From Schmidtea polychroa (taxonomy: Eukaryota): a stretch of 64,000 nt of DNA. Below the pieces are notes generated by a model. That model did no database searches and was not told where the DNA came from. It saw nothing but the letters and a program-made list of their open reading frames with translations. Position numbers and translations under genes: made by a program. The stretch is taken from assembly GCA_044892525.1 (NCBI GenBank), contig CM097887.1, positions 18,662,001 through 18,726,000 of the forward strand, given 5' to 3'. Positions 11,752-56,200 of the stretch are shown piece by piece (within the stretch, counting starts at the first letter, position 1; every line of letters begins with the position of its first letter).

Positions 11752-12027
11752 CTAAAAGAAATGATAATAAGAAAATTTGTTACCGGCATTCGTATACATA
11801 AAAGCAAAATTCGTTTAATTGCACAGCAAAATTATTTAATTGTATGTTAATATCGGGTGTACTGTAACAGACAAACCTAACAAGGCGATACTCAATTGAT
11901 TTATTACACGAAATTTCATAAAAATAAAAGAATTGATACAATTAAAGAAACGTAAGAACTAGTTTTATCACTACAAATTAAACGTCATCCATGTCGTTGC
12001 AAGTCGTGGTTGACGATCATATTTGAA

Positions 12028-12371: not shown

Positions 12372-14017
12372 TTCTGTTATCAAATAGGCACAATTAAAGG
12401 TGATGGCAATTTCAATTTTTCTCTAAATCCAAAATTTCGTCTTTTATAGTTTATTCGTTCAACTAAGTTGCAAAATAATGGTTTGATCAATTTGTTAATT
12501 GTCTTATCATAATTTACGTTATAAATTGAAGGGTAATTCGATTATGGATTTTTCAAATTCAAAAATATATTAACTCAAATTAGGATAATAAATTTCTACT
12601 TCTACCTCACCCTGGAAAAATCCGGGTGCTAATCCGTTATGTAATTTGTAAATTTTATCATTTAATCTTTCTACCATTATTAAATTATTGCCACAATTAA
12701 TTTACTAAAATCACTGCTAAACATATGTACCAAATTATTACTTTAAGAGCAAATTTCCAAAAATCTAACTTTGTTTGTCTGTATTAATTATTTTTTCTGT
12801 GTTCCTTTTTTGATAATCATTCACTTTCAATTTTATAGTATTTTCAACATAATTAAAGTTCTAAGATTAATACTGCTTAATTACTGAACTAACCAGCTCC
12901 ATCGGTGCTGGGTGAGCGGTTGGAACTTTAGTTTCACACCTCATCCTCACTTAGACCGGGTTGTCATATTCGGTGTGGTCGTTTTTTGTTTTTATTCTAA
13001 TTCTAGGTCACTTTGATCCATTCCCAGAAGAATATCGATGCAAACATTTTGACGATGTTGGAATCGGTTAATAACTCTTACCTATCCGAAATCGTGGATT
13101 TATGTTTAGTTCTACACGGAGCCGTAAGAATGAGTTCTTATCGGTGGCTTTCATTTGTTAATCTCAGATTAAAGAAGATTAGTACCCTGCTAATATTTAC
13201 GCGCTATCGTTGGGATTTTATTTCTCTGCTCGTGGTTAAACTAATGGAATTTAATTCGGAAGTTATGATTTGTGAACTGGACGGTATAATTTGATCCGAG
13301 GGTTTGTTAGTGCCCCGCTATTATGCTCTTGTTTTCCTTAATTGAATTTCTACATTATTGTGGTTTTGGGTGGTTAAGTTTTGGTTTATTAGTTCGCTTC
13401 AAATTTGAAACTTGAATTGGAGTAATTTATCACGATTGATTGTGCACTAAATGATTAGATACGTAATTTCTATTTTGTTACTTTTATGATTGTAATTAAT
13501 TTAAATGTTTAATTAATACTTGATTTTTTTCTGAATATCATTTAACTCTCTACTTCCCGATTTCATCGATTAAGATTTTGTATTTCTACTGCCCAAGCAC
13601 TTGTTTCATTTAGGGGGCTAACATGTAAGAAAGGGAAGAAGTAGATCTGGAAAAATATAATGTAAATTATCTGGTGATTCACACCGCCTATAGTGATTGG
13701 TTGATCACATGGGAACTAGTTTGTTAATATCCAAATAAAATGTTTTCTTTTTGTCGACATTTCTCTGCAGAAATATGGAGTAGTGTTACTAAAATTAGAA
13801 GTTAGTATTTTCGATGTTTCTATTGGAAGATAGGGTCGCTGAAATCCAATTTAGGTTAGGGGAATTCCAAAATCGATAATTTTAATTTTATAAAGTAGAG
13901 CTAATTATTTAAAGGGTATAAATAAAGTTACTGGAAGCGATTGGGTGGGAAATAAAAAACGTAAAGCGGTAATCATAATATAAAAGGAGTGGTGACATGA
14001 GTGGTAATAATATTAAC

Positions 14018-14073
<56 letters not shown>
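14018..14073. repeat. (AAT)n microsatellite inside M1
   Basis: Perfect trinucleotide run; a degenerate counterpart lies in M2 at about 44720-44825. Confidence 0.95.
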
Positions 14074-14075
<2 letters not shown>

Positions 14076-14700
14076 TGGTATTTTTATAAGATTATCACAC
14101 ATAAACAGCTGGGGGGTTCTTTAAAATTACAAATGAAACTTAATTTAATGCTCAATGAAGGTAATCTGATCTGGTAAAGTTAGCAGCTACAAGATTTGGG
14201 GAGGGGGGGGGGGGGTTATCTAGGAATAATTTCTAAGGTATAACTTCAAATATGATATAAGTCAGTTATATATTAAACCAAATTAATTTAGGGTATTTAT
14301 GGAATGGTTGGTGATTATATAGCTTTAGGGGGTGAGGTCATTTACAAAATTTTCAATTTATGATTTTTTATATATAATGTACGTTTTAGCTTTAGACATG
14401 AGAAAGATCGGGAAATTATATTTTGGGTATTAATGAGTTATTATTTAGGGATAATATATAAATTATACCATACTATAAATTTATAAGTTATCATTTGCGA
14501 ACGATACATACTTATGAGTTATAATTTTAAGTGGTATACGGATTTATAATTTATAAGTAATAAGCAGATATAAATTCTAATATAAAATTATAGTTTATAA
14601 TTTAGAAACTTTATTCATTTATACATTATATTTTCAACATAATATAAAGATATATTTTATAGTTTGGGAGTATTATACATTGATAAAATATACTTCTAAA

Positions 14701-14870
14701 CAACGTTCCCTCTAAGCTGCGCGCGTGCGCGCGCAGCAAAATTATTTTCAGTACAGTATATTTCAATCTTACAACCACGTTATAGCATTTTGACGCTCAT
14801 TTGTATTTAAAGGCTGCTCAGCGCAGCTGACTTTGCGCGCACTGCTGCTTATGGCTTAGAGGGAACATTG
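14701..14870. mobile_element. hAT-type MITE (170 bp) nested in M1
   Basis: TIR CAACGTTCCCTCTAAGC / GCTTAGAGGGAACATTG; 8-bp TSD CTTCTAAA. Confidence 0.9.
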
Positions 14871-17800
14871 CTTCTAAATATATTATAATGATATTTATTA
14901 CAATTTGCGAACACTATACATTTACAAGTTATCCTTTAAGGATAATATAAAATTATATTTTATAATTCGTAATTTATAAATAAGTTATATTTTATAATCT
15001 GAAATTATAATCTATAACTAAAATTATACTATAATTATTATAGTTGAACATTTATAATTTATATTTTCCAAATAAGTTATATTGTATAATTTGAAATTAT
15101 AGTTGAAAACTAAAATTATACTTTGTGATTAATATTTTATAGGTAAGTTCTTTTATACAATTTGAAATTATAGTTTGAAATCTAAATTACACTTCACAGG
15201 TTACCATTTATATTTTATGAATAAGGTATATTTTATAATTTGTAATTTATATTTTTGAAATTATAGTTGATCATCAACGTTATACTTTATAATTCACCAG
15301 TCATGTTTTAGGAATGAGTTATATTTGATACTTCACGAACTTATGATTTATATTTTTACAGAGGATGCTAAATATAATGTATAATTTATGAGTAGTATAA
15401 ATATATAATTTATATACATAGGTAATACAGCTTGTAATTTGAATTCATAATTTTTAATTTGTAAGTAATGTGAATTTATAGTCTATGCCTTCGTGGGTAA
15501 TTTTAAGATACTGGTTATAATAAGATTTTAATTTATTCATGAAAATATTAAGAATTTACACTTTCGAGTCTTTAAATTTTAGATAATCTCAATCGATAAG
15601 TAAACTCTACCGATACGTATGTTGACTATGTTGTCTCATTACATTAATTGAAAGTTCTTTGGGTTACTTGATTATGAGAAAAGTTATTCAGAAAACTAAT
15701 TTCGACAGCCCTATCGGTAGAAGTTACTTCTAGGAAGTTTAACCGTCTAAATTGAGTGTAACTTATAAACTGTGGTTAAGTTAGGTCTGAGATCTACTCC
15801 GATTATTGTTCTAATGTTATTTGTATTATAGTGATTTTTAATGTCGATTTTGATTGTGTTATGCATTGAAATCGGGAAGAGTTCTTGCTTTCGCGGCCCC
15901 ACTGTGACCACTACGACAAGCCTTACTGCTGTGTTAAGTCAACCTTTTACGGCTGACCTGTAATAAATAAGTAGAGTCAGGCGGAGGGGTCTTATCGACT
16001 CAACTCCATGGCAGAACCATGAAGTGGTGCGACCTTTGAAAGACCTGAACAAAAAAAGGAAGGTATAATACAAATAATGCGTGCTGGTGCCTGCAGTTCT
16101 ATAAATTTAACACATGGCTGAATGTAGGACTGAATAGAGACGCAGGTGCATCAATGCGTCGCTGATCACTCGTACATTCAATAAAAAAATAAAAAGGGTT
16201 AAATTGAAACATAAATAATAATATTATTAAATATCAATAAATGAAATACCAAAGCTTACTATCGAATAAAATTAAAATTTTTCTCAAGAAAATAATTTGG
16301 CATAAAGAGTGTTTTGCGACTAAAATGCGTTGGTATATATACCTATTTTTGTGTGTGCAAGTACGTGTGTATGTATTGATGCATTAAAACAAACTCGAAT
16401 TCTTTTTATTCTAGAATTTTCTATTTTTGATATTTTTAATGGCAATTTTAGTGCCATAATTTTTGTTTTTATTTTTAAATTTTTATTTTCTAATTATTTT
16501 TTGCTAAATTTACCTCCATGATGGATTTGGAACGGTTCCAGAACATTCCATATTAATTTTAGATTAATTTTTATTTTAATGATGTTTTCTTAATTTCTTT
16601 TTTCAAATTTTTATTTTTTCAACTAAGTTATTTACTTTTGTTAACTTCTATTGATCTATGTGGCTTTTATGATGGTTGTCACCATTCTTAGGAAATGTTC
16701 TGGGATTTTTCTAGAATTTTTAATGTTTTACCATCTTTCTAAGCTATTCGAGTCTGTTTTTTTGTAATTTGTGTTTCTTTGCTATTTTTGAGTTAGTTTC
16801 TTGCACTACTTCTTGCATTGATGTCATTTTATTTAATTTCTGTGTTTATATTTTTGTTGTTTTTCCTCTTAATTAATATTGTTTATTTGATGTATTTTTT
16901 TTATATTTAACTGAACTTATTGCTATTTGCGTGCTATGTACCCACGCACCTTAGTCACAAATTAGAGTTTTTGGGTCTAGAAATCAGTTCTAACCCAACA
17001 AAAATAATAAAATCATTCCAGAAAGCCAATTTGACATTGAAACTGTAACAATTACTTTTAATAAAATGTAAACATGGAAAATTTTTTTAATTTTTGAAAA
17101 TAAGGAAATTCTAAATTCCACAAAACATTGGAAAAGATGCTTCAAATCATACATTTTATGAGAGAAAGTCGGAATAATTTTTGGGATTTAGTCTAGCAAG
17201 GCCATAATAAAAATAAAAATCACAAAAATTTAAAGAAAATGCATATGTTATGATGGAAAAGGTAAGGCCAATGATGAGACGAATCATCGAGGGGTCACTA
17301 TAATGAAATATTTGAAGAAAATTGCAAATTAATTACCTAAAGGAAAAGTCGGTTAAATCATTGTCAACAAAATTATTAAATGAGTGCCAAGTGAATTGGG
17401 GAAAACTCGAGATAAAAATGAAGTCGATTTTGATTAAAAATTGCCAAGATCTCCAAATAGACAGTAAATTAGTTTAATACAGAAAACACGAGGAGAGAGG
17501 CAAAATTGATTACAAATTGATTTAATTACAAGAACGATATAAAAAGACGAGACAAGTTAGTAAAATTATCAATTGGTCGAAGACAATTTTAAGAAGTTAA
17601 TTCATAAGGTGATTGATAACGTACCAAAGAAAGATCTATCCTAGCCCGAAAGATAAAAGTGTTTTGAGATGTAAAGATTAAGTGTTAATAAAATTGTGTG
17701 GATATAAAGTTTTGTAAACAATTGTGGTAATTTGTTTATAAGTGAGAATTATGAGTGTAGAGATACTAAACTAATTTGCATAAAGTTTTTGTTGAAAACG

Positions 17801-27528: not shown

Positions 27529-28830
27529 TGGTGGGTTACATGTATTATATACATTTTACCCTTTCTTGCTGTTTGGAGCGTAACCCAGAATACAATCATG
27601 TATCTTACCGCTTGGTATACCGTGGAGTGATCAACGTTGGTGATGTAGTGGGTGAGTGCTCGCAGAAAGTGAGCGTACTGTAATTGTCGGTCACTCGTTG
27701 GGTCCACGGACTGTCGATAGAAGATTTATGTCCGATTTACTTTGTACCCCTCAGTTAAATTGTTTTCCCAAAATCCACAAACTCGTCAACATTCAAATCA
27801 AGCCGCCATCAAAGCATACTCGTGAAATTAAACATTTGTTGGTTATTGAGTTGGTGATAATTTAAATGTTACTATGACTCCAAACGTGTCTTTATACGAT
27901 CCACAAATAACACTGGACAACAGAAATCTTTATTGATAATCACAAATAAACTTTCACTTTACACTTACAATAAATTCAACACTTTGCTTGGTGACTATAC
28001 AAGTTTCTCTTTATATAGTTTGCTTCTATTGTCGCACTCAAGATAATCAAGTGTTTTTCCACTTTCTTACTCCTGCTTTCCCAGACTGTTCCATTTTTAT
28101 CTCTGGCGGCTTTCAACCTATTTTCACTTTTCCTTTTTTTGTTAAACCGCCTTCTCCCAGCACTTCTGTTATCACTGACAAGCTGTCGAGATAAGAGTAT
28201 TGTTGTTTTTTCTATTTCCCCAATTTCGAAATTCCTTTTTCTTTTTGTACTAATTAATTAGTACTGACCTTGGTTTTTATTTTCATGTTTGATTACTTTT
28301 GTTTCCTTCCTCATTCCTCATTTCTTTTTTCTTCCGCTTTCTTTTTTGAGTTCCCATAGATCGTCTCGTTTGTCATGACGATCTTCCCCCAGGTAATTTT
28401 ATTTATTTATTTATAAATTATTATTTAGGTATCCTCAACACATTTATATTTACACAAGCACTTAGTACACCAGATTTCTATCTACAAAGTCATATTATAA
28501 ATGAGTTGTTTCTTGTTCTTCCCGGTGATCCTGCTCGGCTAGACAGAGTCTCTTCGGTCGACTCTGTCGTCACGACCCAGACTCCTTCGTTTAGATTGAT
28601 CTTGCTGGGTAGGCGGATGGATTTCGGTCAGCTCTGTAGGCATGGGTAGGATGGCTGCTGCAACATGAGCGTCAATGGTCTTCTTATTCTGTTGGGTCTC
28701 CAGGGATCGAACTTGGATAATTGGTGCGCGGATCTCAGTTTTATCCTGTGCTTTTTGCAGTGGAGCTGCTCAATCAGCTTGAACCGTTTCTTCATTTCTC
28801 GAGTTCTCGGCACGCCCCTTGAAATTAATA
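27529..28830 (-). mobile_element. Element M4: truncated, divergent M copy with nested L LTR
   Basis: TGGTGGGTTAC terminus at 27529 and 3' motif (ATCACCAA bulge); decayed ORF2 (CRELE..EMKKR..KRRSLGR) at about 28500-28815. Confidence 0.75.
27837..28440 (-). mobile_element. Family L solo LTR (604 bp)
   Basis: TGTTG...CAACA; TSD CATT/CATT; minus-strand TATA followed by AATAAA (U3-R-U5 order). Confidence 0.9.
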
Positions 28831-37246: not shown

Positions 37247-39902
37247 TATATATACAATTGTAATGAGTAAACCCTGGTGTCGATAGAGAAATTACCTCAA
37301 TTTCGTCGTATTCAAACTAAACAGCGATTTCGCTGGTATCTGTAAGTTCATCGAAATGGCCACATCATTAGAGAAATTATCATTAGACCTGGACACGATC
37401 AAGTTGGTGGTCACCCGCAAAAGCTAGTCCCCAGTATAAGGACTGCTAATGCACTGACGCACCTTCGGGTTCACGGGCTTACCATTGAATGTGTGCTGTC
37501 CAATATTTCCATATTGATTTCTCCTAACTCTTTACCCTCGACTTACCTTTCAGATTTTATGTCAAAGATTTTAAGTAACGAAGTAAAATGTGAAGAATAT
37601 GTTGGGCTAAAGTTTAGAGTGGAAAAAACTGGATTAAATAGAGAAACGAACCTCGAAAAAATAAATAAAATAAAATAAAAAATAAATTTACCATCAAATC
37701 CCAGTAGTAAATAAGGAGAAACAATAAAATACTCATAAAAGAAATAAGAATAGGGGACAAATTAATAAAACCCCTAAGATTACGAGATAAATCAAGGAGA
37801 AACGATTTAAAACACACACTGAATAAAATAGAATTAGAATAAGCAAAAAAGGTGAGAAAATAAATGAGAAATTAAAGCAATAAATAAAAATAAAACTATT
37901 TTTAATTAAAAACAAAAAAATTATATTGTTATAAAGTAGCAATAAACCAGCAGGAAAAATAGGAGGAAAATAGTAAAAATAAGAAAATAAATAAAATAAT
38001 AAGAAATAAGTTAGTTATTAAAAAATCTAATATAGTATAATAAAAACATAAAAATAACAATAAATAACGAAATTACAAGCTAGTCGCGTCCTGATTGGAC
38101 GGAAAATAGTATATAAGCAACGGAAAATATCTGTAGAGTACCATTTAACCGCTATACTCTACAGGTAAAATTTTATTGTTTTTAACTTGACCATTTAACC
38201 GCTATATTCTACAGCAACCAATTTTCGGATATTACCTTAGAAGACACTCTACAAACGTTACGAATCTGCAAAAACTTTATTACAGCGAACTAGTTCCAGA
38301 ATTCTAATTCAAACTCTAGGAAGAAATCCATAGTAAATTTAGCGACAAACTTATTCAGGAGAAATTTTAGTTTTCAGCCAATTTGATCCGGTTTTGAAAC
38401 TCAAAGTATGTTAAGTCGTTTATGAGTCAATTTAGTAAATTTTTGAATGGTTTAATTTTGTATGGTTAAATTTTTGTAAATATAATGATAAATTTCAGAA
38501 AATAAATTTATTTAAAAGAAAACAGCTTTCTTCATGGTGCTGGCGACTGTACCATCTGGTAACTTCAAGTATGATGCGGATGAGAGGAAATAGCTACGAG
38601 GAATTTTCATGATATGCATTCAGAAGACGTTGAAAAGACATTGGGTTCTTAGAGAATACGATACTGGTCGATGAGACGTCCACCAATGCGACGATCGAGA
38701 GAATGATTAGATGGAGAGAGACATCATATGATAGCCCAAATGATAGGGTCGCCGGGTAGATTTTACTTATTCATTATTTCGTAAATATATTTCGATCATT
38801 ATGAATTATATGCAAATTAACAATTTTTTTTTTGAATGCGAAGGAGTTGATTGGTCCCTCATGACGTTGCAAGAATGGCGGCAGCAATGAATGCCTTCTT
38901 GGGTGTGTCATGGGGGGTGATGAGACTCAGTAGGTTGAGACGTCGATTTTCCCTCACCGATTGCGATTGTTAGTAGGGTACTCCATTGTTATATTCTGTC
39001 GTATCAAATTTCCAATAGCTGCGGAGACGATTTAGATTTCAAAAAAGAGACAATTCATATTGGAAAATCATGTTTACATTAGTGCTGATTAGGGAAAACC
39101 TGCATAGGTAGAGGAACACTTTTCTTGATTCAGCTTACCGACCAGAGATTGGAAGAGGACCTTGTTGATCATAAATTATGAATAAATCTAACAAATTTCC
39201 ATAATACGATGCCTTTTGAGATGTCAGCTGATCTGGATCGCCAGAGCATTAGCGACGAAACCCATCGACGATGTACTTTTAGTCTACAATATTGACTTTT
39301 GAGTTGCTGATAAGCACCGTTTTCCGAAAATTAAGGTAAACAAACCATGAGAAATTATCAGAAATCTTACGATAGAGATGAGAGAAATTACTGACAGAAT
39401 TATCGGTTACGCTTGTATTGACTTGAGGAATCACTGTGGGAGTTATCTGCTAATTGACAAATGAATTGCAGCCAGATTATAACCAACATAATTTAACGAT
39501 CGACTAAACCAGATAGAGTTGATAACCGGTTAACTCCAAAATGATTTGTTTAAGCGGAGCGGGGGTAGACGTTGTTTTGAGTGACCGTTGATAAGCGAAT
39601 TAGATTATGATTCCCAGCTCATTTCACCAGTTACCGAATTGCCACACGCTATCCAAGGCTGATGCTCATATAATATCTAGTAGCAATTCACAGCGACCGT
39701 GTGGTAAACGCATACATTCGCACACTCTATCGTGAAACTCCTTCCAGCAGGATAGCAAAATACTTGAAATAGCAGAGTTTTCGACGACGTCATAATTACA
39801 TAATAGTCTATTCACGATTTTATGAGATAGTTGGATTGTGTGTTTAAGTAGCAGGATAGATCGCTTTATTAACGACGTGATACGACCTCGAACTGCATAG
39901 AC

Positions 39903-40284
39903 CAGTGGTACGCAAACTTTTTACCTCCCGGCACAAAATAGAAAAAAAAAGTCAAGGCACAAATAGAAAGAATGTATCTTTTATATAGAATTTTTTTAAT
40001 GGAATGAAATTACATGTATATATTTTATTTAATGGGATGAGTGCGCTTGTTTTTTGTCGCAAATAAATTTTATACGTGGTTCGATTTTTGTTAAACAAAC
40101 TCGCAACTCATCATCCAACATTTTGTTTTTATTAAATAACTACAAAAAAAATATTTTAACTTCTTTTTTTTATTATAAAAACTAAAAAAAATATTTTCGT
40201 AATAAATATTTTCGCATTAGCGGCACATTTTAAATTCTTTTACGGCACACTAATATGCCGCGGCACATAGTTTGCGTACCACTG
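39903..40284. mobile_element. hAT (Buster/Charlie-type) MITE, 382 bp
   Basis: TIR CAGTGGTACGCAAAC; 8-bp TSD GCATAGAC with central TA. Confidence 0.92.
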
Positions 40285-40949
40285 GCATAGACTGTTAGGG
40301 AGAACGACAACACATGCAAGTACAAGGCTAGATTAAGCTAACCAAACCTACTAACTCGTATAATGAGAACTTAATATGACACAAGTACACGAGTAGGCGT
40401 CACTATGGAAATGAATATAGCGCGCTTTACAAACAATTTATAATCTAAATTTATGATGCATTTTGTTGTACTCTAATGTTGAATTTTCGACGTTGATCAG
40501 AATTTATACCATAAGTGTCACCGGAGTTCGACTCATTTGCATTAGGTATACACAACTCGACCAACCACGGTACTAAGAAGGGGATTTTAAATTAATTTTA
40601 GAATTACAGAGAAAGATAGAATTAACGATTAACGATCAGCTAAAGGTGAATAAATGGGGTGAATAAAGGTGAATAAATCACATCTGAATTTAAACATCGA
40701 CTCTATATTGGGTAAACTAAATTCGGTTAATTTTCCCCGTTTTCTTTCCTTAATTCATATAAATTAGTTGGGAAAATAGTGTATGATTGCCAATGAATGA
40801 TTGTGAATCGAAAAGGATGATGAGATCTGTGAGTTGTCAGTGTACGGAATGATTGGTAGAACTCCAAGTATAAGTCCCAAAATGCGACCATATCGTATTA
40901 GTAAATGTTTTCCCTTCCGAATGAACCTAACAAATGATTGACCTTCTAG

Positions 40950-41381
40950 ATGACTACATCGTCCAACAATGCCAAGGATCTTCGCCCGTGCTTCTCTTGC
41001 GCGGATAAGAGAGCAGACATCGCTCAGCTTCACTCGTACATCGGGGCGCTAAAGAAGCGAATAGACCTCTATGAAGGCACGTGGTTCTCCCCGCCACAAA
41101 TGAAAGAGGAAAGGACTAAGATCCTCAGACTAGAACACTGTAGGGACAGCCTGCTGGAAGAGAGCCGCTGTCAAAGGCTCACAATAAAGGCACAGTCAGA
41201 AGCCCTCCATAAGGTCTATACGGAGGCAGAACTAGCCAAGCGAGTGCGCGAATTTCCTGTCGTGGATGGTACGAACGTGTTCCCTCTCCACCATCAGTCG
41301 TCTACATCTTCTACCACAAGTTGTCAAGGGCACGGCTCCATCTGCCGCCCATCCCAGCCCCGGTATTGTCGGGATATCTGA
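40950..41381 (+). CDS. Element D coiled-coil ORF, distant homolog of M ORF2
   Basis: LKKRIDLYEGTWFSPPQMKEERTKILRL aligns with LKVKCRELEGTWFSPAEMKKRTTHISRL; preceded by cttctag|ATG. Confidence 0.6.
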   Translation: MTTSSNNAKDLRPCFSCADKRADIAQLHSYIGALKKRIDLYEGTWFSPPQMKEERTKILRLEHCRDSLLEESRCQRLTIKAQSEALHKVYTEAELAKRVREFPVVDGTNVFPLHHQSSTSSTTSCQGHGSICRPSQPRYCRDI

Positions 41382-41676
41382 CCCAATTCTCGTGGCACCT
41401 TTTGTCACCCCGGCGGTAGGAGAAAATCCGCCATCCCGCAAACGCAAGCATCCGACTAGGGCCGAGAAGAATAGAAAACGCCGGGATACAATGAAGGCGC
41501 TCGAAACGTCATTATCAGCGGCGCACTCGAAAATTAAGGAAATATCAACAACTCACTCAATCCCCTCAAAGGAAGTTTTCCGCATTGTTCCAGCCAGCAG
41601 TATCAAATTCATATCCGACTGCCGATTACCTGTTGACATCGACGAGATGATCGCCGAAGGGGACAACTTCGTCTAG
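41266..41676 (+). CDS. Element D overlapping ORF with basic motif; may be the frameshifted C-terminus of the previous ORF
   Basis: PPSRKRKHPTRAEKNRKRR resembles PP..KPKRKRLGRN of M ORF2. Confidence 0.4.
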   Translation: MVRTCSLSTISRLHLLPQVVKGTAPSAAHPSPGIVGISDPILVAPFVTPAVGENPPSRKRKHPTRAEKNRKRRDTMKALETSLSAAHSKIKEISTTHSIPSKEVFRIVPASSIKFISDCRLPVDIDEMIAEGDNFV

Positions 41677-43974
41677 AACGGATTCCTATTGCTCTCGATG
41701 TTAGCTGCGAGCCGTAAACGAACTTGAAGATTTCGTCGAATGTCGTATCCTACTTGTTCATATGCTGTTGATTTAATAATTGTGATGATGTATTGTTTTA
41801 TTTTCGTTTCAGTGTCAATATATTTTTCTGTTTGGTTATTATTTTGTAAAGTCTTCATATATTTGGTTTTGCGAATTAGAGTAAACGAATTAGTGCGGAA
41901 GAATGAAGGAATTAGGCCAACGGTCGTCCTCTGGACTAGGATCGGACCGAGATTTAGGTAGGAATGAGGGTAAGCCCTTCTCAGGCACCATGGAACCCGA
42001 ACCGAGAAGGGGTTAGGAGTAGTCCTAAGGCAGGGGCTCACCTGCTAACCTTTTCCGACCCGTGTGGGCAGCACCAACGTGGAACATCACCACGGGCCCA
42101 CGCGTGGGAATATTTGTCTGATCATTAGGAGTATGCAAGGGAAGTGTGATGAGCGGAATGGCGAGGCTTGTGTTGGGCTAGAACTGACTTCTAGACCCAA
42201 ACTTGAATTGTGACTGAAAGGTGCAGGTACACAACATGCAAAAACAAAAAGTGTAGTTAAATATTAAAATTACATCAAATAAACAATATTAATTAAAGGA
42301 GAAAACAACAAAAGCATAAACACCGAAATTAAATAAAATCATACCAAAAGCAAGAAGTTATGCAAAATCTAACTCAAAATGATCAAATAAACATAGAGTT
42401 ACAAGAAACAAACTCGAATAACTTAAAAGCTGGTAAGAACAGTAAAAAATTCCAGAAAAACCCAGAACATTCCATAAAAATGGCGATGACCATCATAAAA
42501 GTTATCTTAAACAATAAAATTTAGACAAAATCAATAAATTAGTAATAAAAATGAAAATTCGTAAAAAGAAATCCATAAAACACCAATTAAAATAAAAATT
42601 AAATTAAAAGTGAAATAGAATGTTCTGGAACCGTTCCAAATCCATCATGGACGTAAAATTAATGAAAAATAATTAAAGAATAAAAATATAAAAATAAAAA
42701 CAAAAATTATGGCAAAAAAATTGCCATTAAAAATATCGAAATTACAAAATAGAAAGTTCTGGAATAAAAAGAATTCGAGTGTTTTAATGCATCAATACAT
42801 ACACGTGTACAAAATAGGTATATATACTGACACGTTTCAGTCACAATCAATCACTATTTTTATGCCAATTTTTACAGAAAGTATTGCCAACGAAAATAGT
42901 AAGAATTGTTGATTTTTTTTTATTGCATTAATGAAGTACTTTTTAAATTAGTTATCATTTTATTTGTTGATTTTTATTATATTAATGAATTATTTTTTTT
43001 AATTTATGATTATTTTATGTGTTGATTACATTAATGAATTACCTTTTCAATTTATGAGTATTTTATTTGTTGAGTTTATTACATTGGTGAATCACTTTTC
43101 AATTTATTATCAATTATGTAGGGGAATCGAAGTAATTGCATTTTTTGATGTCTCTTGCTTTTGATTCTCTCCAGTGATGTACGAAGGTTCGACGGCGTAC
43201 TGGTATTCCTGCGTCGTCGTTCGGTCCTGCATCTAATTTTTATAGGACATGCATTATCAATATTATAGCAATCTAATATTATATCATCCTTTTTTTGTTC
43301 GGGTCTTTCGGGGGTCGAACTACTTCATGGTCCTGCCATGGAGTTAGGTCGAGGAAACCCTCCGTCTGACTCTTTGTATTTATGTAAGGTCGGCCGTAAA
43401 TGGTTGACTCAACACACAACACTAAGGTTTGTGGAAGTGGTCACAGTGGGGCCATGGAAGCAATATTCTTCCCGACTTTCAGTTAATACACATGTAAAAT
43501 CCACATTCAAAATCACGAACAAAAACTCTACATTAAGGTTCTAAATTGAGTAGAACTCGTACCTAAAATGACACAATCCTGCACTCACACTCATGTAGCT
43601 GGTTGACCCTTAATAGTAATTGTAAGTATACTTAGACAGATGCCGAACTAGAATTTGAAATAAGAATTTACAGTAAAGTAATAAAATGAGAAGGATCGTC
43701 GGCATGTGTATAAGTATAGTTTAATTTAGATAGGCTAATTAAAGTAAATGTAGATACCATAAATGTAATTCTCCAGAAACAAATTACAAATTGATCAGGA
43801 ATCCTACTCTAATATATTTGGGTAAATGATAAATGAACAACACGGATAAATCTTAACTATAAAAATAGACCATAAGCAAGTGTATATAGATCAGAAAATA
43901 TAAATCTAGTTATGTATGTATATATTAACTCTAAATAGGTAACCTAGTAAGGATAATAGATAGATTTTTAACCA

Positions 43975-44520
43975 CAAAGATACAAATGTTATATATAATT
44001 TATAATTATAAATTCCAAATGGTTATGGGAAAATTTTGCTTTATAATAATGAAGGGGAATCTCTTTAGTAATCCCTTTAATCTTAGAAATATAAATGAAT
44101 AAAATGTTATATATAAATTATAATTATAAATTCCCAATAGTTACGGTTAAATTTTACCTTATAAGAATGAAAGAATCTCTTTAATAATCCCTTTAATCTT
44201 AGAAATATAAATGATAAAAATGTTATATATAAATTATAATTAGAAATTCCCAAGGGTTATGGTTAACTTTTACCTTATAAGAATGGAAGAATCTCTTTAA
44301 TAATCGCTTCAGTATTAGAAACATAGATGATAAAATGTTATATATGAGTTATAATTATAAATTCCCAATAGTTATGGTTAAATTTTACTCTATAAAAATG
44401 AAAGAATCTCTTCAATAATCTCTTCAACCTTAAAAGCACAAATGATAAAATTATAAATGTTATCTATAAATTATAATTACAAATCCCCAATGGATATGGT
44501 TAAAAGTTATTTGATATAAA
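43975..44520. repeat. Tandem repeat of about 117 bp, about 4.5 copies, inside M2
   Basis: Recurring AATGTTATATATAAATTATAATTATAAATTCCCAA..GAATCTCTTTAATAATC. Confidence 0.85.
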
Positions 44521-45761
44521 TTATAAATATAATCTATAAATAGGTATAAATACGAATTATAGATAGTTATATGTAATACTTAGCTATAAATATACAAAGT
44601 ACAGATAGCGATAATGACCTGCAACGAAGCATACGACGTTAGAATCAGGGCTATAAAAATCTTGCTAGAGTCATGAATTACAAATTGAAATAATTATATT
44701 CATTATTATAACCATCATCATTAGTGTTATTATTACCATTATTATTATTTGTTATTATTATTACTATTATTACTACTATTGTTATCATGGTATTATTATT
44801 ATTATTATTGTTACAATTACTATTGTTATCTCTATCAGCAATTATTGCTCACCAAAATCAATATTCCAATCGAAATATCGATTTAAGGTTTGCCCCAAGT
44901 CAAATTTAGTATCAACCCTTTAGATCCAATAAGAAGGAGCGAAATCCTTAAAAGTTATTTTTAGTAACCCCCCTCTAGAAAATGTTAACACTATCTAAGT
45001 AAATTGGAGATAGGGGCGGAAGTATATTATCAAAACCTATGAGATACCTATCTAAATCATTAATGAATCGTAATCATATCATTTGTTTACTAGAGAATCA
45101 AACCACTATTACTAAAATACCAAAGAGTGCTTTATTATGATTAATAAATTATAAATACAAAACTACTACGAATTCCAAAAGAGAATCCCTAACGAGGAGT
45201 CGTACGACGATTTCCCAAAGCTAAACTCGTCTATCTCCAGCCAAGAAAAATCATCACCCAGCATTCCTAGAAATGAAAATGTGTGGTAAATAAATAAATT
45301 ACCCGAGCTGCTTAAAAGTCGATTGTACCACTCATGACGAGCACGATCAAGGAGAGGTAAGTAAACGAGAACTAAGCTCGCCTCTAATACCTATCACCCG
45401 ATGTGCCCGAATTCAGTAGTAATGTACTAATTCCCGGGAATTCGACAAAATTTAACATAAAGATTTTTAAATTACCATCTCGTGGTAAATAAATGATAAA
45501 TAGTGAAATAGTAAGTTTAAACAAATATGACAGTGAGGGAATTTTTTTTGTCGAGGTATGGACCTTTCAACATTAATGCTTAATCTAGATAAATGTTTTT
45601 TTTTTATTTTTAATTGATTAAGAATTTTATCGATAAATTAAATAAAAAATTTCATGTTAAAAGTAGTTACATTACTTATAGTAACTTTGGTAGTTAAAGT
45701 ATTATTTATTTTGGGTATATTTTCCACATTGGTTATGATCGTTAATATTCGTACTACAGAT

Positions 45762-46127
45762 ATGTCCCAATCAGATGAGTTCAGCGATGAAGAAAACCAC
45801 CGACGGACGATCACCCGCCTCCGGACCCGTTACATCTGGCACCATATACATCGGTGGGGTCAGGGAAGGGACCTAGATTGTACGGAACGAGTAATCCGGA
45901 CAGGCCCCGAAGTAGATGCCCCGGCGTGGGTGAAGGTGGAACCGGAGAATAACCGGCTGCAGGAGGCCCGAGACCAAGCGGCCTGGGAGGTGGAAGCCGC
46001 TCAGATGCGACTCAGGAAGATCGAGTTACAAATCCGGGCGAAAAGAGAAGGAGTGCCCGTGGAGGAGCTAGAGGAGGCCATAGCATCCCCACGAAAGAGA
46101 GGGAGGCCCCGCAAATGCCGAGGGTGA
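45762..46127 (+). CDS. M2 ORF1, intact 121 aa, C-terminal AT-hook (PRKRGRPRK)
   Basis: ATG follows ctacag|AT; homologous ORFs in M1 and M3. Confidence 0.75.
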   Translation: MSQSDEFSDEENHRRTITRLRTRYIWHHIHRWGQGRDLDCTERVIRTGPEVDAPAWVKVEPENNRLQEARDQAAWEVEAAQMRLRKIELQIRAKREGVPVEELEEAIASPRKRGRPRKCRG

Positions 46128-46333
46128 TCAAGGACCAACTATTGACTTACTATAATTGTGTGTATTGTGACAAATAATCAAAATTGGTTGAGGATCATGT
46201 GTTACTCTTTTTAATAAAATATCTTTTGAATAAATTTCTTATTTAATAGCTAAAGTATCGTTATGCATGATATTGACCTTATTATATTGAACAAGGGGAA
46301 TGCTGCAAGCCAGTAATCGTCGTAATTTATCTA

Positions 46334-46804
46334 ATGATCAAACTATGCGAAAATCTACGAAAGGACAGAGAAGAAGCCCAAAAACAGGCCGAGGAGCTCC
46401 GTATACGAGTGGACAAACTCAAGGGACGGTGCCGTGAACTAGAAAGCACCTGGTTTAGTCCTCAAGATATGAGGAAGAAGTTGACACAGGTCCTCCAATT
46501 GCAGACTCAAAACGCGCAGGATCAGATGGAGATCCGGGCCTTGAAACTCTAACTCCGCGCGTTGGAAACCGAACGCAATGAACAAGCGGTTCACGGAGCC
46601 ACCATAAGTCAAATCCGGCCGTTGTCCGTGGAGTTGGCAGCCATTTACCCTCCGGCCGCGAAAGATAAGCCCAAGAGGAAGCGGCTGGGGAGAAACATTC
46701 GTGAGAAATTAAAGAAGGCCAGACTGGCCGAATACGAAAAGCAAGTGGGCTCCTCGCAAATATCTACGACGGGACTAATCGGCCCCACCAACCGGCCAAG
46801 TTGA
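46334..46804 (+). pseudogene. M2 ORF2, 156 codons with one in-frame TAA at 46550-46552
   Basis: The two listed ORFs are in the same frame and align end to end with M3 ORF2. Confidence 0.8.
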
Positions 46805-47009
46805 ACTTCCATTCCTTGATGTGTACTTCTGTAGTGTGTTTATATATCTAGTAGTATTGAAATGATATTTCCTTTGCTTGTTGTTAAAATAATACATGTT
46901 CTGTAGCGTTAAAAAATGTCTGATATATTTTATGATTGTGTGAAAAGTGAGAGTTTGCACGTAAGGTTGGGAAAACAATTTTGATAAGGGACCTAAGGAA
47001 ATCGGACAC

Positions 47010-47216
47010 AAACCTTCTAACGGTAGTCCGTGAACCCATGGAGTGCTCGACGATTATAGTGCCTCGATGCGCTCACTTTTCGCGAGCACTCAACCCTTGG
47101 TACAGGACCAACGTTGATTACTCAACGGGTACCAAGCGGAACCACTAACGTTGTATTTTGGGTTACGCTGGCAACAGCACTAAAGGACAAAATATTTGAT
47201 CATCAGTAACCCACCA
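47010..47216 (+). ncRNA. Predicted structured 3' domain of the M/D/E family; strand and function not proven
   Basis: Stems 47041-49/47083-91, 47096-103/47129-36 with bulge 47104-11, and 47160-66/47206-12; compensatory changes across six copies. Confidence 0.6.
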
Positions 47217-48021
47217 CTTGGTATGTCTCTAAATCGTGGATAAATAACTTTCTTCCCCACCATACACCAACAGTAGTTAGGAGCTCCCCACAGCAAGCAC
47301 TCCTTCCCGGGGGAGGGGGGTAAAAAGTTTTTTTTTGATTACGCGATTTCTGCAGAGGGCTCCAATGTTTGTTTTCAATACATTTAGATAGGCTCTATAG
47401 AAAAAGGCCAACAAATATGAGATTATCTGAACGGCGGGATTTTAATATCATATTATTATAGAGATTGCGATTAAACCACGATTATGTTAGCAGCGAAACA
47501 TGATGAATTCGATTTGGCTAGAAAATGTTATGTTAAATATATCTTGATAAAGACAACGATAATTTTACATCACAGTTCTATGCAGGCCCTGAAAGAGGGG
47601 TAGGAGTTACGTGGGTCTTTTGACGTGGGCCTCCAAAACATAGCTAGCAACATTGTCTATTGTAAACTATACTTCGTAATTTTATGTAAGGCAACAAAAA
47701 TTTATAACTAGAGGCCTTTATGATTGATGCAATCCCACTTTCGACTTGGCTTAGATGTTTTTTCCTTGTATAATTAACTGCCGACACAAATTTGATGTTA
47801 TGAATTTTACATTTAGAACTCAAAATCTATTTCACTCAGAAAAATTAAGAATATCATAACAAAATACAATATAAAAACTTGTAATATTTTGTAAATGAAT
47901 CAAATTCCTCGTGATCAGTTTAATTTAATTATTGTTAAGATTAATTTTAAACTGTAAGTAATAATAAATTATTTAAATAAATTTAGAATATTTTATATTA
48001 TTTTATTTGTATAAAATCAAC

Positions 48022-48122: not shown

Positions 48123-48172
48123 CTAATCAGAAAAAAATTATTAAAACCCGGTAACAAAAGTCTAATTCTAAC

Positions 48173-51363: not shown

Positions 51364-52172
51364 TTGTTATTATTCAAAAATAAAATTATTATTCGTTATC
51401 GTGAATTTAAACAATTTGGGAATGTGAATACTGTTGCTACTATCTTTACTGGTTTCATTTCATCGAATTCTTTGACACATATATCTGCTTAAACTCTTTT
51501 TTCATTATTGTTTTACAAACGCTTTCTAATTCTCATGTCTTCTATGCATAATATTTGATGAATCACTGGTGATAATAATTACATATCCCAAAAACTTCTC
51601 ATCAAGTTCTTCACGCACTTTGGGTTTTGGAAGTATTGAATATCTTCAATATTATTTTTGGTCAGTTTGTATTTATTATGTATTCTAAAAACTTAATTTT
51701 ACTTTTAAAGATCTGATACTTTTTTGAGCTAATTTTTAGTTTTGTTATTTCAATACGCTTTTGAATAATTTCCAAACATTATATGGTGTTTTTCAATAAA
51801 TTTTTGTAAAGATTAGTGGTGGGTTACTGATGACCAAATATTTTGCTCTTTAGTGCTGTTACCAGCGTAACCCAGCATGCAACATTATTTTCCACTTGGT
51901 ACCCGTTGAGTAATCAACGTTGGTGCTGTACCAAGGGGTTGAGTACTCGCAAAAAGTGAGCGCGCTAAGAGCGCTATAATTGTCGAGCACTCCATGGGTT
52001 CACGGACGGCCGATAGAAGGCATGTGTCCGATTTATTTCGGTCCCTTATCGAGATTGCTTTCCCAAACTCTTTTCTGTCAACCGTCCTGCTCTGGACAAT
52101 CACAAATTTAATCACATACCCATCAGACAATGAAATTATTTATTAAAACACTACAATATCACAATGTCGGTT

Positions 52173-52645
52173 TTACCCAGGAGGGATCGCACTCTCAAAC
52201 ATTCCTCCGGATCGTGGAGTGGTTTCAGGCTCTTTCGATTTTTCCTGCTCGGCCAGCCAGGCCCTTTTCAATTTCTCTCGGGTATTACGCCCTAACCGTT
52301 TACGTTTCGGCTTGCTCGTCTGGGCCGGGGGGTATATCTGGGCCAGCTCCATGGGAAGTGGACGAATCTGTTCTCGGAGAGTGTCCTGGATGAACCTTTC
52401 GTTCAATCTACTCTCGAGCGTGCGCACTTGTAACTTCAGTGCTCGTATTTCGAGTTGGTCCTGCTCCGCCTGGGTCTGGAGTCGCGAGATGTGTGTTGTT
52501 CGTTTCTTCATCTCAGCCGGACTGAACCAAGTACCTTCGAGCTCTCGGCACTTGACTTTGAGCTTCTCGACCCGACTTCGGAGGTCTTCGGCTTGTTGCT
52601 GGGCTTGTTCGCGGTCCTTGCGTTGGTTTTCGAGTAACTTGTACA
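52173..52645 (-). CDS. M3 ORF2, intact, about 157 aa coiled-coil protein with TWFSP and basic motifs
   Basis: Open frame after ttttccttcag|TG; no ATG at the homologous start. Confidence 0.7.
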
Positions 52646-52946
52646 CTGAAGGAAAACAATAATAAAATTTCATCGCTCGCTTCCATGTGCGTAAAGGTGA
52701 TTCGATTAATTGCATAAAATTAATAGATGAAGGATGAGAAGGGTCACCTCAAACATGAATACACCCATAAGCCATAAAGTCCAAAATGTAATAGCAGAAA
52801 AACAATTTATTATACTACGAAGATACATGTTGAACGATATTGTCAAAAAGTTAATGAACAAAAATTGTAATGAAGTCAAACGCAAACACCATATCATTGA
52901 ATCAAATTTGTTAGATAGTTTTATTCCAGTTGCCACTGCTGGCGGC

Positions 52947-53263
52947 TTAGGCAGGATTCTTACGGGGCCTCCCTCGTTTTCGTGGAGGAGCATCTGCCTC
53001 TTCTAGCTCTTCGAGGGTTACTCCCTCTGCTTCGGCTCTGAGCTGAAGCTCGAGTCTCTTCAGTCGCCTCTGGGCCTCGTCTACTTCGCCGGCCGCTCGA
53101 TCGCGGGCTTCTCGCAACACATTGTTGGTCGGCTCTACTTTCACCCACCCCGGGGCATCGGGCTCGGGGCCACTTCGGATGACCGGACCATAATTATCTG
53201 GGTCCGGAGCCGCGTGATCCTCTGCCTGTACTCCGCTTCGTCGGGTTCACTTGTTTGAGCCAT
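52947..53263 (-). pseudogene. M3 ORF1, frameshifted by internal deletion
   Basis: MAQTSEPDEAEYRQRITRLRT / VIRSGPEPDAPGWVKVEP..PPRKRGRPRK. Confidence 0.8.
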
Positions 53264-56200
53264 TCTGTTAATAAATAAGGATGGTTAACGATAATGGTCT
53301 TTTCCCTTTTTTTAAAAATTTCATCTTTCTCATCAATCTGCTAAGACGTAAAACAGTGGTTCGAACGAATAGTTACCCTCTGATGGTAATAGTGTTCCGT
53401 GTCGTAAATTAGATGACCAATTTACAGCCAAAATGGATGGTCATTCACTTATCATCACCCTATAGCCTCACCCTGGAAACATCGAAAGGGATCTTCCTAA
53501 TAAATACTTTATTACTAATTCAGCCAGTGACAAAAATTTCCTTTGACCTTGAACTTTATTTTTGCTCGTGGTCGTCTTACCTAAATCGCTCAGATCTATT
53601 AGTTTAACTTTTATTGAAAAATTAAAACATGAATCTAGTTGCTTTATTAAGCTAACATTATTATGTAATTATTTACATCATGGGGATCATTTATTTGCAT
53701 TTGTATTTAAGCTGAATTATTTAATTCAGCTTATATTTTCACTATAATTAGCCCTAGAGAAAGATTTCGCTGGCGAACGGTTTTATTGTCGAACTGTGTT
53801 CCAATACCCTTCGTCGGTGAAGTTAATGATTCATTAGAAATAATAAAGACATATTCTATAACTTAATGACAATACATATCTACAAATTATAGTTTTGAAT
53901 TTTGGGTTGCACTTCAGGATTCAGAGATCATACATATTACCAATTTTTATATCAGGGTAATGTACGTTACTTTCAGAACTGTAGTTATTCAGAAATAATG
54001 AATTCCGTTTAAAATAATCAAGCATTTTCATTTTACTATGTACGCTTGTCGGAACTTCCTTACGAGGATTATTACGTTTACTTCTGAAAAACTTTTATAG
54101 CAACATTAAGATTTATATATATCAATGAGGTCCGACAAACGTACAGGTATAACTGAGCTTTTTAATGAGGTTCAACCGACTATATGTGTTCAATTTGGGT
54201 CTGAGATCTACTCAATTAGAGTCCTAGTGTTTAGTAGTGTGTGAAATTTTTAATGTTGATTTTAATTGTGTGCTGCATTCAAACTCGGGAAGAATGCTTG
54301 CTTACACGGCCCCACTGTGACCGCTACGACAAGCCCTACTGTAGTGTTGTAGTCGAAACATACCACTGTCGACCGATAATAAATAGTTAGAGCCATAGCC
54401 GAGGGGTTTTATCGACACAACTCCATGGTTGAACCATGAAGTGGACGACCTCCGATGACCGAACAAAAAAGATATATAATAAAAATAATGCATGTCTGCA
54501 TGTGGTTTTAGATTTTTAAAGTCTGGTTGAATGCAAGGCTGATCAGAGGTGCATACAATCGGCACGACTCTAATCACTCTTACATTCAACGGTAAAAAAA
54601 CGAAAAAGTTTCAAAAGGAAATATGGATTTGATAACAACTAAATGATAAAACATATTATAATGTAAAACATATTATAACATATCATATAAAACATATCAT
54701 AAAAACATATTATAATGTAAATAAAGTACTCCTTACTATTAAGATTTTTCCAAAGAATTTTCACAAAATCAAAAAAAATGAACTTGGCATAAAGTGATTA
54801 ATTATGACCGAAACGTGTCGGTATATATACCTATTTTGTACACGTGTATGTATTGATGCATTAAAACAAATTCTTTTTATTCCAGAATTTTCTATTTTGC
54901 GATTTTGCATTTTTAATGGCAATTTTTGTGCCATAATTTTTGTTTTTATTTTTAAATTTTTATTTTTTAATTATTTTTTCGTTAATTTGACGTCCATGAT
55001 GGATTTGGAACGGTTCCAGAACATTCCATGTTAATTTTTATTTTATTTTTATTTTAACTGATGTTTTATGAATTTCTTTTTAAGATTTTTTATTTTTAAT
55101 ACTAATTTATTTATTTTCTCTAACTTTTGTTGTTCTAGATGGCTTTTGTGATGGTCTTCGCCATTTTTATGGAATGTTCTGGGTTTTTCTGGAATTTTTT
55201 ACTGTTTTTTTACCGTTTTTTTAAGTTATTCGAGTCTGTTTTTTGTAACTCCGTGTTTATTTGGTTATTTTTGAGTTCTATTTTTGCATCACTTCTTGCT
55301 TTTGTATAATTTTATTTAATTTCTGTGTTTATGTTTTTGTTGTTTTCTCCTTTAATTAATATTGTTTATTTGGTGTAGTTTTCAATATTTAGCTATACTT
55401 TTTGCTTTTTGCATGTTGTGTACCTACACATTTCAGTCATAATTAGAAGTTTGGGTCTAGAAATAAGTTCCAGCCCAACATTAGTATATCATCTAGATAT
55501 AACAGTTCTTTATCTTTCCATAATAATCTTAATATTTTTCTCCTTAATTCTTAAAATGTATCCGTAGGTGCTACAATACCAAATGGCATTCGATTGAAAC
55601 TAAATTGTCATTCTTTCGTTGAGAATGGTTTTTTCTATGTGAGTATTTTTCCACTTTGTCTTAGTAATAGGCGTTACCTAAGTTCATCACACTTAAATAT
55701 TTATCCCAATGTGAATTGTCTAATATTTCTACTACATTTGACATCGAGGTGCCTGTCCTTACTTATCCGTCTTATTTATTTATCTAAAAGTATACAATAG
55801 TTTCAAGGTGAGTTACACTTCCTAATAATTCCGTTGCTTTTTATGTTTTTCATATATTTTCCTTCAAGATTTATTGACTTTATTGTTATTGTTTCTCCTT
55901 CCGTTACGATTTCATGCTTGGTCAGGTACTTAAATTCGATATCGCATTTATCACTCATAAAAACCTATTTATAAGATTCTAAAATTTATTGAAACCCCTT
56001 ATTAGTTCCAATAGAATTACATTTGATTTCTTTGTTCAATTTAAATTAGTAGTTCTGTCTCTGTGTTAATATATGATATGATAATTTTTACTATAATGAA
56101 CCTTATCTTCAATGTTATATCTCCTATTTTAGAATAGACTTCTATTTTATCTAGAGTTTCAAACATGCTGTTGGTTGGGCATCTAAAAAGCTAATTATTT

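Follow-up and report, generated by a model that had tools for sequence, protein, structure and literature searches.

A 64,000-nucleotide stretch of Schmidtea polychroa DNA (contig CM097887.1, hereafter the window) contains long repeats that begin with TG, end with CA, are mostly flanked by a 4-bp target site duplication (TSD) and include open reading frames (ORFs). What are these repeats, how did they reach their present positions and what might their ORFs do? The initial annotation took them for a family with neither integrase (IN) nor reverse transcriptase (RT), being either giant gene-carrying solo long terminal repeats (LTRs) or a non-autonomous element that borrows an integrase. We conclude, with a probability of about 0.9, that the copies M1, M2 and M3 are solo LTRs of 31-37 kb Ty3/gypsy elements of the planarian Burro layout, and that the LTRs hold two selected genes, likely spliced and likely regulators of the element. 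The element class is already known; the new part is the selected coding ORFs inside the LTR.

The repeats in the window

Table 1. Repeats in the window and features of the M2 LTR
Feature	Position	Strand	Description
E	1801..3881	+	Solo LTR of pol-less Burro-like derivative; TSD ATAC/ATAT, one mismatch
M1	10998..17000	-	Older M-family solo LTR; TSD AAAA
M4	27529..28757	-	Partial LTR; 3′ end 27529-27784, ORF2 remnant 28757-28575
D	37600..47272	+	LTR of sister Burro-like family, split by M2
M2	42171..47216	+	Solo LTR, 5,046 bp, within 3′ end of LTR D; TSD CTTG
Predicted promoter module	42817..42904	+	In M2; function inferred from conservation
TATA-like box	42817-42827	+	In M2
Initiator-like motif	42835-42844	+	In M2
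Splice-donor-like GT	42899	+	In M2
Satellite, 116-bp	43973..44504	.	Inside M2 LTR, likely intronic
LTR ORF1	45762..46127	+	121 aa, open in M2
LTR ORF2 exon	46334..46801	+	About 156 aa, broken in M2
Conserved LTR 3′ end of M2	46967..47216	+	Likely U5
M3	51817..55480	-	M-family solo LTR; TSD TTAG

The terminal sequences are TGTTGGG and CCCACCA, E ending with CCCAACA instead. M1 and M3 are oriented opposite to M2 and the terminal blocks are 74-88% identical. The boundaries and 4-bp TSDs first proposed for M1, M2 and M3 are confirmed, and a wider check found a 4-bp TSD at all six M-type solo copies with both ends examined, M2 included. M4 is partial as described, with a 3′ end and an ORF2 remnant; its 5′ terminus was looked for and not found. 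The layout attributed to the M repeats (TATA-like box, GC block, satellite, ORF1 and ORF2) is present, and the ORFs that these copies were said to carry do exist, although several frames in the window are broken. For E the boundaries and the imperfect TSD stand, but it encodes neither ORF and the idea that it carries genes of its own does not apply. The proposed structured 3′ domain has a fold only modestly better than those of shuffled sequences (z -2.39, 4/200), and M2 gave no Rfam match at the gathering score and one chance match (E 0.74).

The family is present in many copies: a genome search with the two ends of M2 yielded 2087 and 2717 first-look candidates, and the 40 scored per end show 97-100% identity. 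Internal sequence adjoins only four of 19 5′ ends and nine of 47 3′ ends of the M-type LTRs examined, and a primer binding site (PBS) follows nine of those 47 3′ ends. The flanks of D, AATA and GTAG, do not constitute a TSD, and in related D copies the M2 insertion site is empty. The single ORF of D in the window (40950-41673) is a distant, frameshifted homologue of ORF2.

Full-length parent elements

Each of the five pairs of M2-type repeats fetched encloses an internal region of 24-25 kb with a PBS and polyprotein frames, for a full length of 31-37 kb. Along its whole length M2 shares 98.5% identity with the 5′ LTR of one such two-LTR element. The LTRs within an element are 99.3-99.8% identical, and a TSD surrounds the whole element in four of the five pairs, the 3′ LTR of the fifth being truncated. 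The internal genes are gag, MATH, env, PR-RT-RH-IN, ankyrin, TRAF and BIR, with the Pfam domains Retrotrans_gag, zf-CCHC, MATH, aspartyl protease, RVT_1, RT_RNaseH, Integrase_H2C2, rve, Ank, TRAF, BIR and RING. The env-like Monjiviricetes_fusion domain (PF24664) lies in frame between gag and PR with E-values of 3e-66 and 2.5e-71. The pol order is PR-RT-RH-IN with gag upstream, and the best RT matches are Ty3/gypsy-type polyproteins. At the position expected for a BCL2-like domain, before env, the top PDB match is Bcl-xL (E 0.65) and there is no Pfam match.

Since the parent elements of M and D encode integrase and RT, the description of a stand-alone family lacking them is wrong for both. None of the candidates examined gave a clean full-length pair with LTRs of the M1 or M3 subtype. 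At G000:C2:173.20-173.21 Mb half of an M1-like LTR lies next to internal sequence of the M family (87%), and the internal 3′ signature was found at none of 20 M1-like 5′ ends, one regex match being judged spurious. Three loci considered as full-length pairs were rejected, the M1-like candidate at G000:C2:173.18-173.22 Mb as a segmental duplication, the M3-like one at C2:61.92-61.95 Mb as two separate copies and the M-type C2:109.11-109.15 Mb on account of a duplicated flank.

The LTR D comes from an autonomous sister family, also Burro-like. Two full-length D-type copies, of 30.6 and 38 kb, each have a TSD and a PBS; in one the LTRs are 100% identical over 4,236 bp and the internal frame runs to 4,811 codons. 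Whole E-type elements are 17-19 kb long and have two LTRs and a PBS, without pol; a TSD was shown for one, and three of six encode a gag-like protein. Their LTRs keep the promoter-like module and lack the ORFs. The E-type derivative would borrow RT and IN. The non-autonomous alternative thus has a place for E as a whole 17-19 kb element, but not for the 2-kb repeat and not for M or D.

The PBS matches host tRNA-Pro(TGG) plus CCA at 18 of 18 positions, after a spacer of 7-8 nt from the LTR, and agrees with the end of the host tRNA-Pro gene at 15/15 plus CCA in the four of four tested. A polypurine tract (PPT) before the 3′ LTR is a usual Ty3/gypsy feature. None was found here, the last 15 nt holding five to eight purines in all eight copies. 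Instead, a short conserved hairpin lies 20-40 nt upstream of the 3′ LTR and shows no covariation among five sequences. Direct copies around gag-pol with a PBS and a PPT had been named as the mark of an LTR, and we find the pair, the PBS and the whole-element TSD but not the PPT. The absence of a PPT and the 7-8 nt spacer raise concrete questions about reverse transcription and integration.

The ORFs within the LTR

ORF1 has a serine-rich and acidic N-terminus, two helices and a C-terminal AT-hook-like motif, RKRGRPRK. ORF2 comprises a coiled coil, the sequence TWFSP and a basic KRKR tract. In M2, ORF2 has a premature stop and an altered acceptor. Both frames of M1 are frameshifted (ORF1, 12371-12037; ORF2, 11737-11374), and M3 retains an open ORF2 (52646-52173) with a partial ORF1 (53204-52959). 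Genome searches gave at least 2487 and at least 6467 first-look ORF-bearing candidates, which are lower bounds.

The LTR ORFs are under purifying selection. The median pairwise dN/dS, calculated from values that are mutually non-independent, is 0.15 for ORF1 and 0.12 for ORF2, compared with 1.1-3.0 in four of five control frames; an antisense control frame with shared third positions was low as well (0.16-0.26), which was expected, and does not count as independent. The ORF2 loci were not chosen on ORF2, whilst those for ORF1 and the D ORF were picked by protein similarity. For the D ORF the median is 0.09, from the 12 of 29 D loci that the start and end patterns took into the alignment; 20 of the 29 have a frame of at least 240 aa. 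Homology of ORF2 extends across the M and D families, with about 23% identity and an invariant TWFSP.

A word-indexed search gave no homologue of the D ORF. ORF1 has no homologue in a sequence search, no Pfam family and no protein atlas match, and its predicted model (pTM 0.34) matched none of the viral folds at E<=0.001. The predicted model of ORF2 (pTM 0.32) has long helices. ORF2 has ten matches outside the assembly, the best at 2e-26, and several carry tracts of the RRRPNRNRRRR type. One has a Pfam REV match, with an E-value of 0.0013 that is below the curated cut-off and on a low-complexity arginine tract. Nine of the ten exceed 200 aa and eight include host Pfam domains. The motifs of ORF1 and ORF2 suggest possible Tat/Rev-like roles. 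More specifically, and tentatively, ORF2 might be an oligomeric RNA-binding export factor like Rev or CERV, and ORF1 an AT-hook DNA-binding transactivator.

Predicted promoter, splice sites and poly(A) signals

Of the 26 M-type LTR 5′ regions examined, 16 have the TATA-pattern module, at about 630-730 nt. A donor-like site is found in 14 of these 16, preceded by A in 13 of the 14. A candidate acceptor, YAG, stands just before the ATG of ORF1 in 24/25 sequences and directly before the TG that begins ORF2 in 18/18 open copies; across the LTR ORF sets the acceptor motifs number 24/25, 18/18 and 25/25. In M1, M3 and three other LTRs an AATAAA lies about 320-410 nt upstream of the LTR end, adjoining the most conserved block, whereas the last 700 nt of M2 and of four other M-type LTRs have none; the AATAAA noted in M1 and M3 is thus confirmed.

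These motifs point to a probable Pol II start about 0.7 kb into the LTR, with a short first exon probably spliced to the acceptor of ORF1 or ORF2. Because this exon has A as its last base in M-type LTRs and TG opens ORF2, the splice would create the ORF2 start codon. A splice-made start codon may have a precedent in gypsy env, which a literature search did not confirm. Contigs from four runs, three of them presumed to be RNA, contained no junction matching the predicted splice sites; contigs cannot show start, strand or level, and these count on neither side. We judge the ORFs more likely to lie in R or U5 than in U3.

Assessment of the alternatives

Could the repeats be stand-alone TG...CA elements, Ginger-like or TRIM-like, which borrow an integrase and never have an internal region? 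Most copies are indeed alone with their own 4-bp TSD (the six of six solos), and M1 and M3 have no demonstrated full-length pair. However, elements that possess a PBS, RT and IN are bounded by an LTR 98.5% identical to M2, and their TSD encloses the pair as a whole. The integrase of an element makes the TSD, and recombination between its LTRs leaves one LTR with the original TSD, so an excess of solos is what established knowledge predicts. A stand-alone unit is refuted for M2 and D, a Ginger or other stand-alone DDE element is rejected since the repeats are LTRs of RT-encoding elements, and we regard this explanation as very improbable for the family as a whole. The ORFs could instead be captured host exons or non-functional by-products; ORF2 relatives are mostly inside proteins with unrelated host domains (8/10) and many genomic copies are broken. 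This too is improbable given dN/dS values of 0.09-0.15 between subfamilies and the homology of ORF2 between M and D, and we note that the host partners differ in every match, which fits gene models running into intronic LTRs.

On the solo LTR reading, the element's integrase would have made the 4-bp TSD and LTR-LTR recombination would then have left M1-M3. The proposal of giant gene-carrying solo LTRs is upheld by the LTR pairs around gag-env-pol, whilst its analogy with accessory genes in U3 is doubtful because the ORFs come after a conserved promoter-like module. Might genomic RNA nevertheless start near the LTR 3′ end, giving a short R and ORFs in U3, expressed through spliced internal transcripts or from a secondary promoter in U3? 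In favour of this, an R or U5 of 4 kb would be highly unusual, and AATAAA lies beside the most conserved block near the LTR end. Yet the only conserved TATA-initiator-donor module detected sits at 0.5-0.9 kb and is kept in the ORF-less E LTRs, with the caution that the search patterns were narrow and could miss a TATA-less downstream start. We consider this arrangement unlikely, though a serious contender. Of similar standing is our own broadest proposal, in which Burro-type LTRs would be self-contained transcription units with promoter, introns, two Tat/Rev-like genes, of which one has a start codon made by splicing, and a poly(A) site within a 4-kb R/U5; solos in their thousands would stay expressible and provide trans-acting regulators for full-length and pol-less copies as well as for host chromatin, and plus-strand priming would proceed without a PPT.

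Comparison with known systems

The Burro/GYPSM1 elements of planarians exceed 30 kb in total, with internal regions up to 25 kb and thousands of copies (PMC6431247). Their layout includes gag with CCHC knuckles, MATH/TRAF, env, PR-RT-RH-IN, ankyrin and BIR, the env being related to mononegavirus fusion proteins and placed, in frame, between gag and PR (PMC6431247). The likeness extends to size, internal length, gene order and the MATH/TRAF, ankyrin and BIR cargo; it is set by published layout, not by sequence. The Burro1 polyprotein has 4,873 codons (PMC6431247) against 4,811 in the D-type copy, both about 4,800 aa. No named Burro is among the 120 RT matches listed, where a length window of 845-2410 aa leaves out full polyproteins. 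A match to a described family with these ORFs annotated had been named as what would remove novelty. The element corresponds in layout to a described family, but for the LTR ORFs no description was found: the accessible portions of the Burro/GYPSM1 description do not mention LTR ORFs, pol-less derivatives, PBS spacing or a PPT (PMC6431247), nor were ORFs in Burro LTRs found in a literature search whose scope is without Grohme 2018 and Lee 2026, which may cover LTR features. A role of Burro1 in supporting stem cells and regeneration has been reported (cited in PMC13465017). If expressed, the LTR ORFs would be RNAi-testable targets in planarians, and would give a Ty3/gypsy lineage a regulatory layer like that of complex retroviruses.

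LARD and gag-only elements are non-autonomous LTR derivatives, and the E-type resembles them in its two LTRs, PBS, TSD, lack of pol and, in 3/6, a gag-like protein. It is unlike them in its 17-19 kb length and in its link to a Burro-like helper, with which it has an identical PBS and 3′ signal.

The retroviral Rev, Rex, Tat and Tas are small accessory proteins made from spliced mRNAs. CERV of C. elegans Cer1 is a small accessory protein of an env-bearing LTR element (PMC10309623). The ORFs described here would resemble both in coming from spliced mRNAs, splicing being predicted in our case, and Cer1 in the env-bearing context; the basic tract and helical, oligomerisation-type regions of ORF2 add to a possible likeness to Rev and CERV. 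The difference is that the coding exons here are wholly inside the LTR, and the Rev match is sub-threshold. HIV nef and MMTV sag are LTR-overlapping genes in U3, upstream of the main promoter. They share with our ORFs the presence of protein-coding sequence inside an LTR, but the ORFs here follow the conserved promoter-like module, and a solo LTR would therefore keep promoter, exons and sometimes AATAAA. The usual view of solo LTRs is that they are regulatory relics, but those described here contain selected coding genes, in very high copy number.

Paired repeats and the internal region

Searches of the 781-Mb genome found 2087 first-look candidates for one end of M2 and 2717 for the other; the 40 scored for each end show 97-100% identity. 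Same-orientation repeat pairs about 30 kb apart are frequent among the matches and five such loci were taken for full analysis. The initial annotation had proposed looking for direct pairs around gag-pol with a PBS, and all five pairs have this organization: repeat, TACAAATT, PBS, 24-25 kb of long frames and a second repeat. Its statement that the elements lack integrase and RT does not hold for paired M2-type elements, which encode both (Pfam). A 4-bp TSD flanks the whole pair at four of the five loci (CCTG, ATTG, AAGG, GTTG); the GTTG-flanked copy is 51 kb long with a nested insertion, and the fifth pair has a truncated 3′ LTR. Within pairs, the two LTRs share 99.3-99.8% identity.

Pfam places Retrotrans_gag and zf-CCHC first in the M internal region, with a RING gene upstream of gag. 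One long frame follows the order MATH, Monjiviricetes fusion glycoprotein, aspartyl protease, RT, RNase H, integrase and ankyrin, with TRAF and BIR genes downstream. The PBS, 7-8 nt from the LTR, is the exact complement of a host tRNA-Pro(TGG) gene end plus CCA, and this primer tRNA is common to the M, D and E families. The tRNA pattern has 1095 matches per strand genome-wide; a tandem array of 475-bp period occupies G000:C1:130901009-130949020 and beyond (L081-L084).

A polypurine tract before the 3′ LTR was found in none of eight elements. Just upstream of this LTR lies a hairpin, AATTGCG-loop-CGCAATT, conserved across the three families, with no covariation among five sequences. GG(C/T)CCC stands just before the 3′ LTR in all families and could pair with the PBS, and in E-type elements GGTCCCGG, immediately 5′ of that LTR (L043:1441-1507, L167:8353-8419), equals a stretch of the primer tRNA-Pro. 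These likenesses may be due to chance.

Solo LTRs, a sister family and pol-less derivatives

Two readings were offered initially: giant gene-carrying solo LTRs or non-autonomous units. One complete two-LTR element has a 5′ LTR with 98.5% identity to M2. Internal sequence adjoins 4 of 19 M-type 5′ ends and 9 of 47 3′ ends examined, and a 4-bp TSD is present at all six M-type solos with both ends examined. Boundaries, end sequences and TSDs reported for M1, M2 and M3 proved exact on re-inspection; the TSD of E stands except for one mismatch. M1 and M3, opposite in orientation to M2 and 74-88% identical across terminal blocks, probably belong to the M family on homology. One M1-like LTR half abuts M internal sequence; the internal 3′ signature occurs at 0 of 20 M1-like 5′ ends. 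Two candidate pairs from the M1/M3 search were dropped, not being full-length elements. We consider the M elements of the window a real feature and solo LTRs of giant retroelements, with a probability of 0.95 or more. The non-autonomous reading is contradicted for M and D, whose parents encode env-pol, and applies to E-type elements. Of six E-type pairs, five have a PBS, all have the pre-LTR signal seen in M and D, and none matches the env-pol polyprotein. A gag-like frame of 836-875 codons occurs in three; the three closest to E of the window lack a gag match. The E type is a non-autonomous derivative, 17-19 kb long in the three elements measured.

The D-type repeats serve as LTRs in a sister family, of which two full-length copies show both TSD and PBS and an env-pol 57-70% identical to the M polyprotein. 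D of the window is without TSD; two related D solo copies, each with its own TSD (ATAG, GTAG), keep the M2 target site uninterrupted. One full-length copy has LTRs identical over 4,236 bp and is therefore a very recent insertion. Pairs spaced 26.3-26.4 kb are numerous in the assembly (e.g. C1:200299090/200325440), and many copies share one ORF score. This subfamily appears very young, the equal scores pointing to a recent burst.

M2, D and M4 are likely intronic, as they lie between exons of a DAO-family gene.

Features of the window
Feature	Position	Strand	Remarks
Window	G000:C3:18662001-18726000		
E, solo LTR	1801-3881		
Three fragments	4499-4944, 7917-8163, 27869-28446		mutually 74-87% alike; one inside M4 region; probably remnants of a further LTR subfamily
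Direct repeat	9352-9576 and 10335-10556		225 bp, 92%; flanks masked stretch
M1, solo LTR	10998-17000	-	
DAO-family FAD oxidoreductase	48168-48446 and 22474-22881	-	two exons; Pfam
Inverted repeat	23144-23223 / 23735-23814		80 bp, 98.8%; span ~670 bp; MITE-like
M4, partial LTR	27529-28757	-	
Fatty acyl-CoA reductase-like fragment	31953-32354	-	NAD_binding_4
Decayed LTR-like 3′ end	36332-37599	-	TGTTGGGTTATTGGG at 36332; 71% similarity to part of M4; possible insertion site of D
D, LTR	37600-47272		M2 inserted within last 100 nt
M2, solo LTR	42171-47216	+	
Proteasome subunit exon	50900-51319	+	directly adjoins M3
M3, solo LTR	51817-55480	-	
Host C2H2 zinc-finger ORF	60099-61508	+	

Genes within the LTRs

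The M subfamilies share two LTR frames, ORF1 of about 120 aa and ORF2 of about 156 aa; the D LTR has a single ORF of 253 aa, a distant homolog of ORF2. Frames are open in 22 (ORF1) and 19 (ORF2) of 23 M loci analysed and the D ORF reaches at least 240 aa in 20 of 29; the ranking of loci on protein score biases these counts towards intact copies. In the window only M2 ORF1 and M3 ORF2 are open. Median pairwise dN/dS, from pairs that are not independent, is 0.15 for ORF1, 0.12 for ORF2 (loci chosen without regard to ORF2) and 0.09 for the D ORF. Four of five control frames gave 1.1-3.0, and the antisense frame sharing third positions 0.16-0.26. Variation within codons also clusters at the third position, variant codons at third versus second positions numbering 128/44, 205/67 and 215/51, respectively.

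M LTRs carry a TATA-like box about 0.65 kb in, upstream of the ORFs (pattern matched in 16 of 26 regions), and 20 nt past it an initiator-like motif. A donor-like GT follows about 60 nt beyond in 14 of the 16 TATA-matched regions, preceded by A in 13 of the 14; TATA and donor are analogous in D and E LTRs. An acceptor motif lies immediately 5′ of ORF1 (24/25), ORF2 (18/18) and the D ORF (25/25). Since M-type ORF2 starts with TG directly after the acceptor, and M1, M2 and M3 lack a conserved ATG, the predicted splice (A + TG) would create its start codon.

No relatives of ORF1 were detected among sequence homologs, the protein atlas, Pfam or viral folds. Its C-terminus, RKRGRPRK, follows a predicted long helix and fits the AT-hook consensus. 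ORF2 is predicted to form two long helices and one basic helix. When 1.84 billion representatives were searched with an ORF2 profile, 10 matches were obtained: one stand-alone protein of 157 aa (2e-26) and nine longer ones. Eight of the nine also contain unrelated host domains, the outcome to be expected where gene models run into intronic LTRs. Public models P0122-P0129 join an ORF2 exon to mitochondrial L21, an SNF transporter, a CH-domain protein, subtilase, actin, GDC-P and CRAL-TRIO; these are likely annotation artefacts of intronic LTRs, or they may represent real exonisation. RRRPNRNRRRR-type tracts occur in several ORF2 relatives; in one relative, Pfam REV matches below its threshold (E 0.0013). 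By analogy we tentatively propose, at somewhat less than even odds, that ORF2 is a Rev/CERV-like RNA export factor and ORF1 a transactivator. CERV of Cer1 (PMC10309623) provides a precedent for an LTR-element accessory regulator.

Comparison with known elements

The portions available of PMC8532177, PMC13465017, PMC11410931, PMC13238120 and PMC13524379 make no mention of LTR ORFs. A coding LTR with a predicted promoter is a variant not found in the accessible literature, of an element class already known. Where a BCL2-like domain would be expected before env, Bcl-xL is the top PDB match, at E 0.65, and Pfam gives no match. The architecture, together with the low GC, suggests a planarian host. 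In layout the elements are Burro-like: they resemble Burro/GYPSM1, as described in PMC6431247, in size, in the position of env between gag and PR, and in the MATH, ankyrin and BIR cargo.
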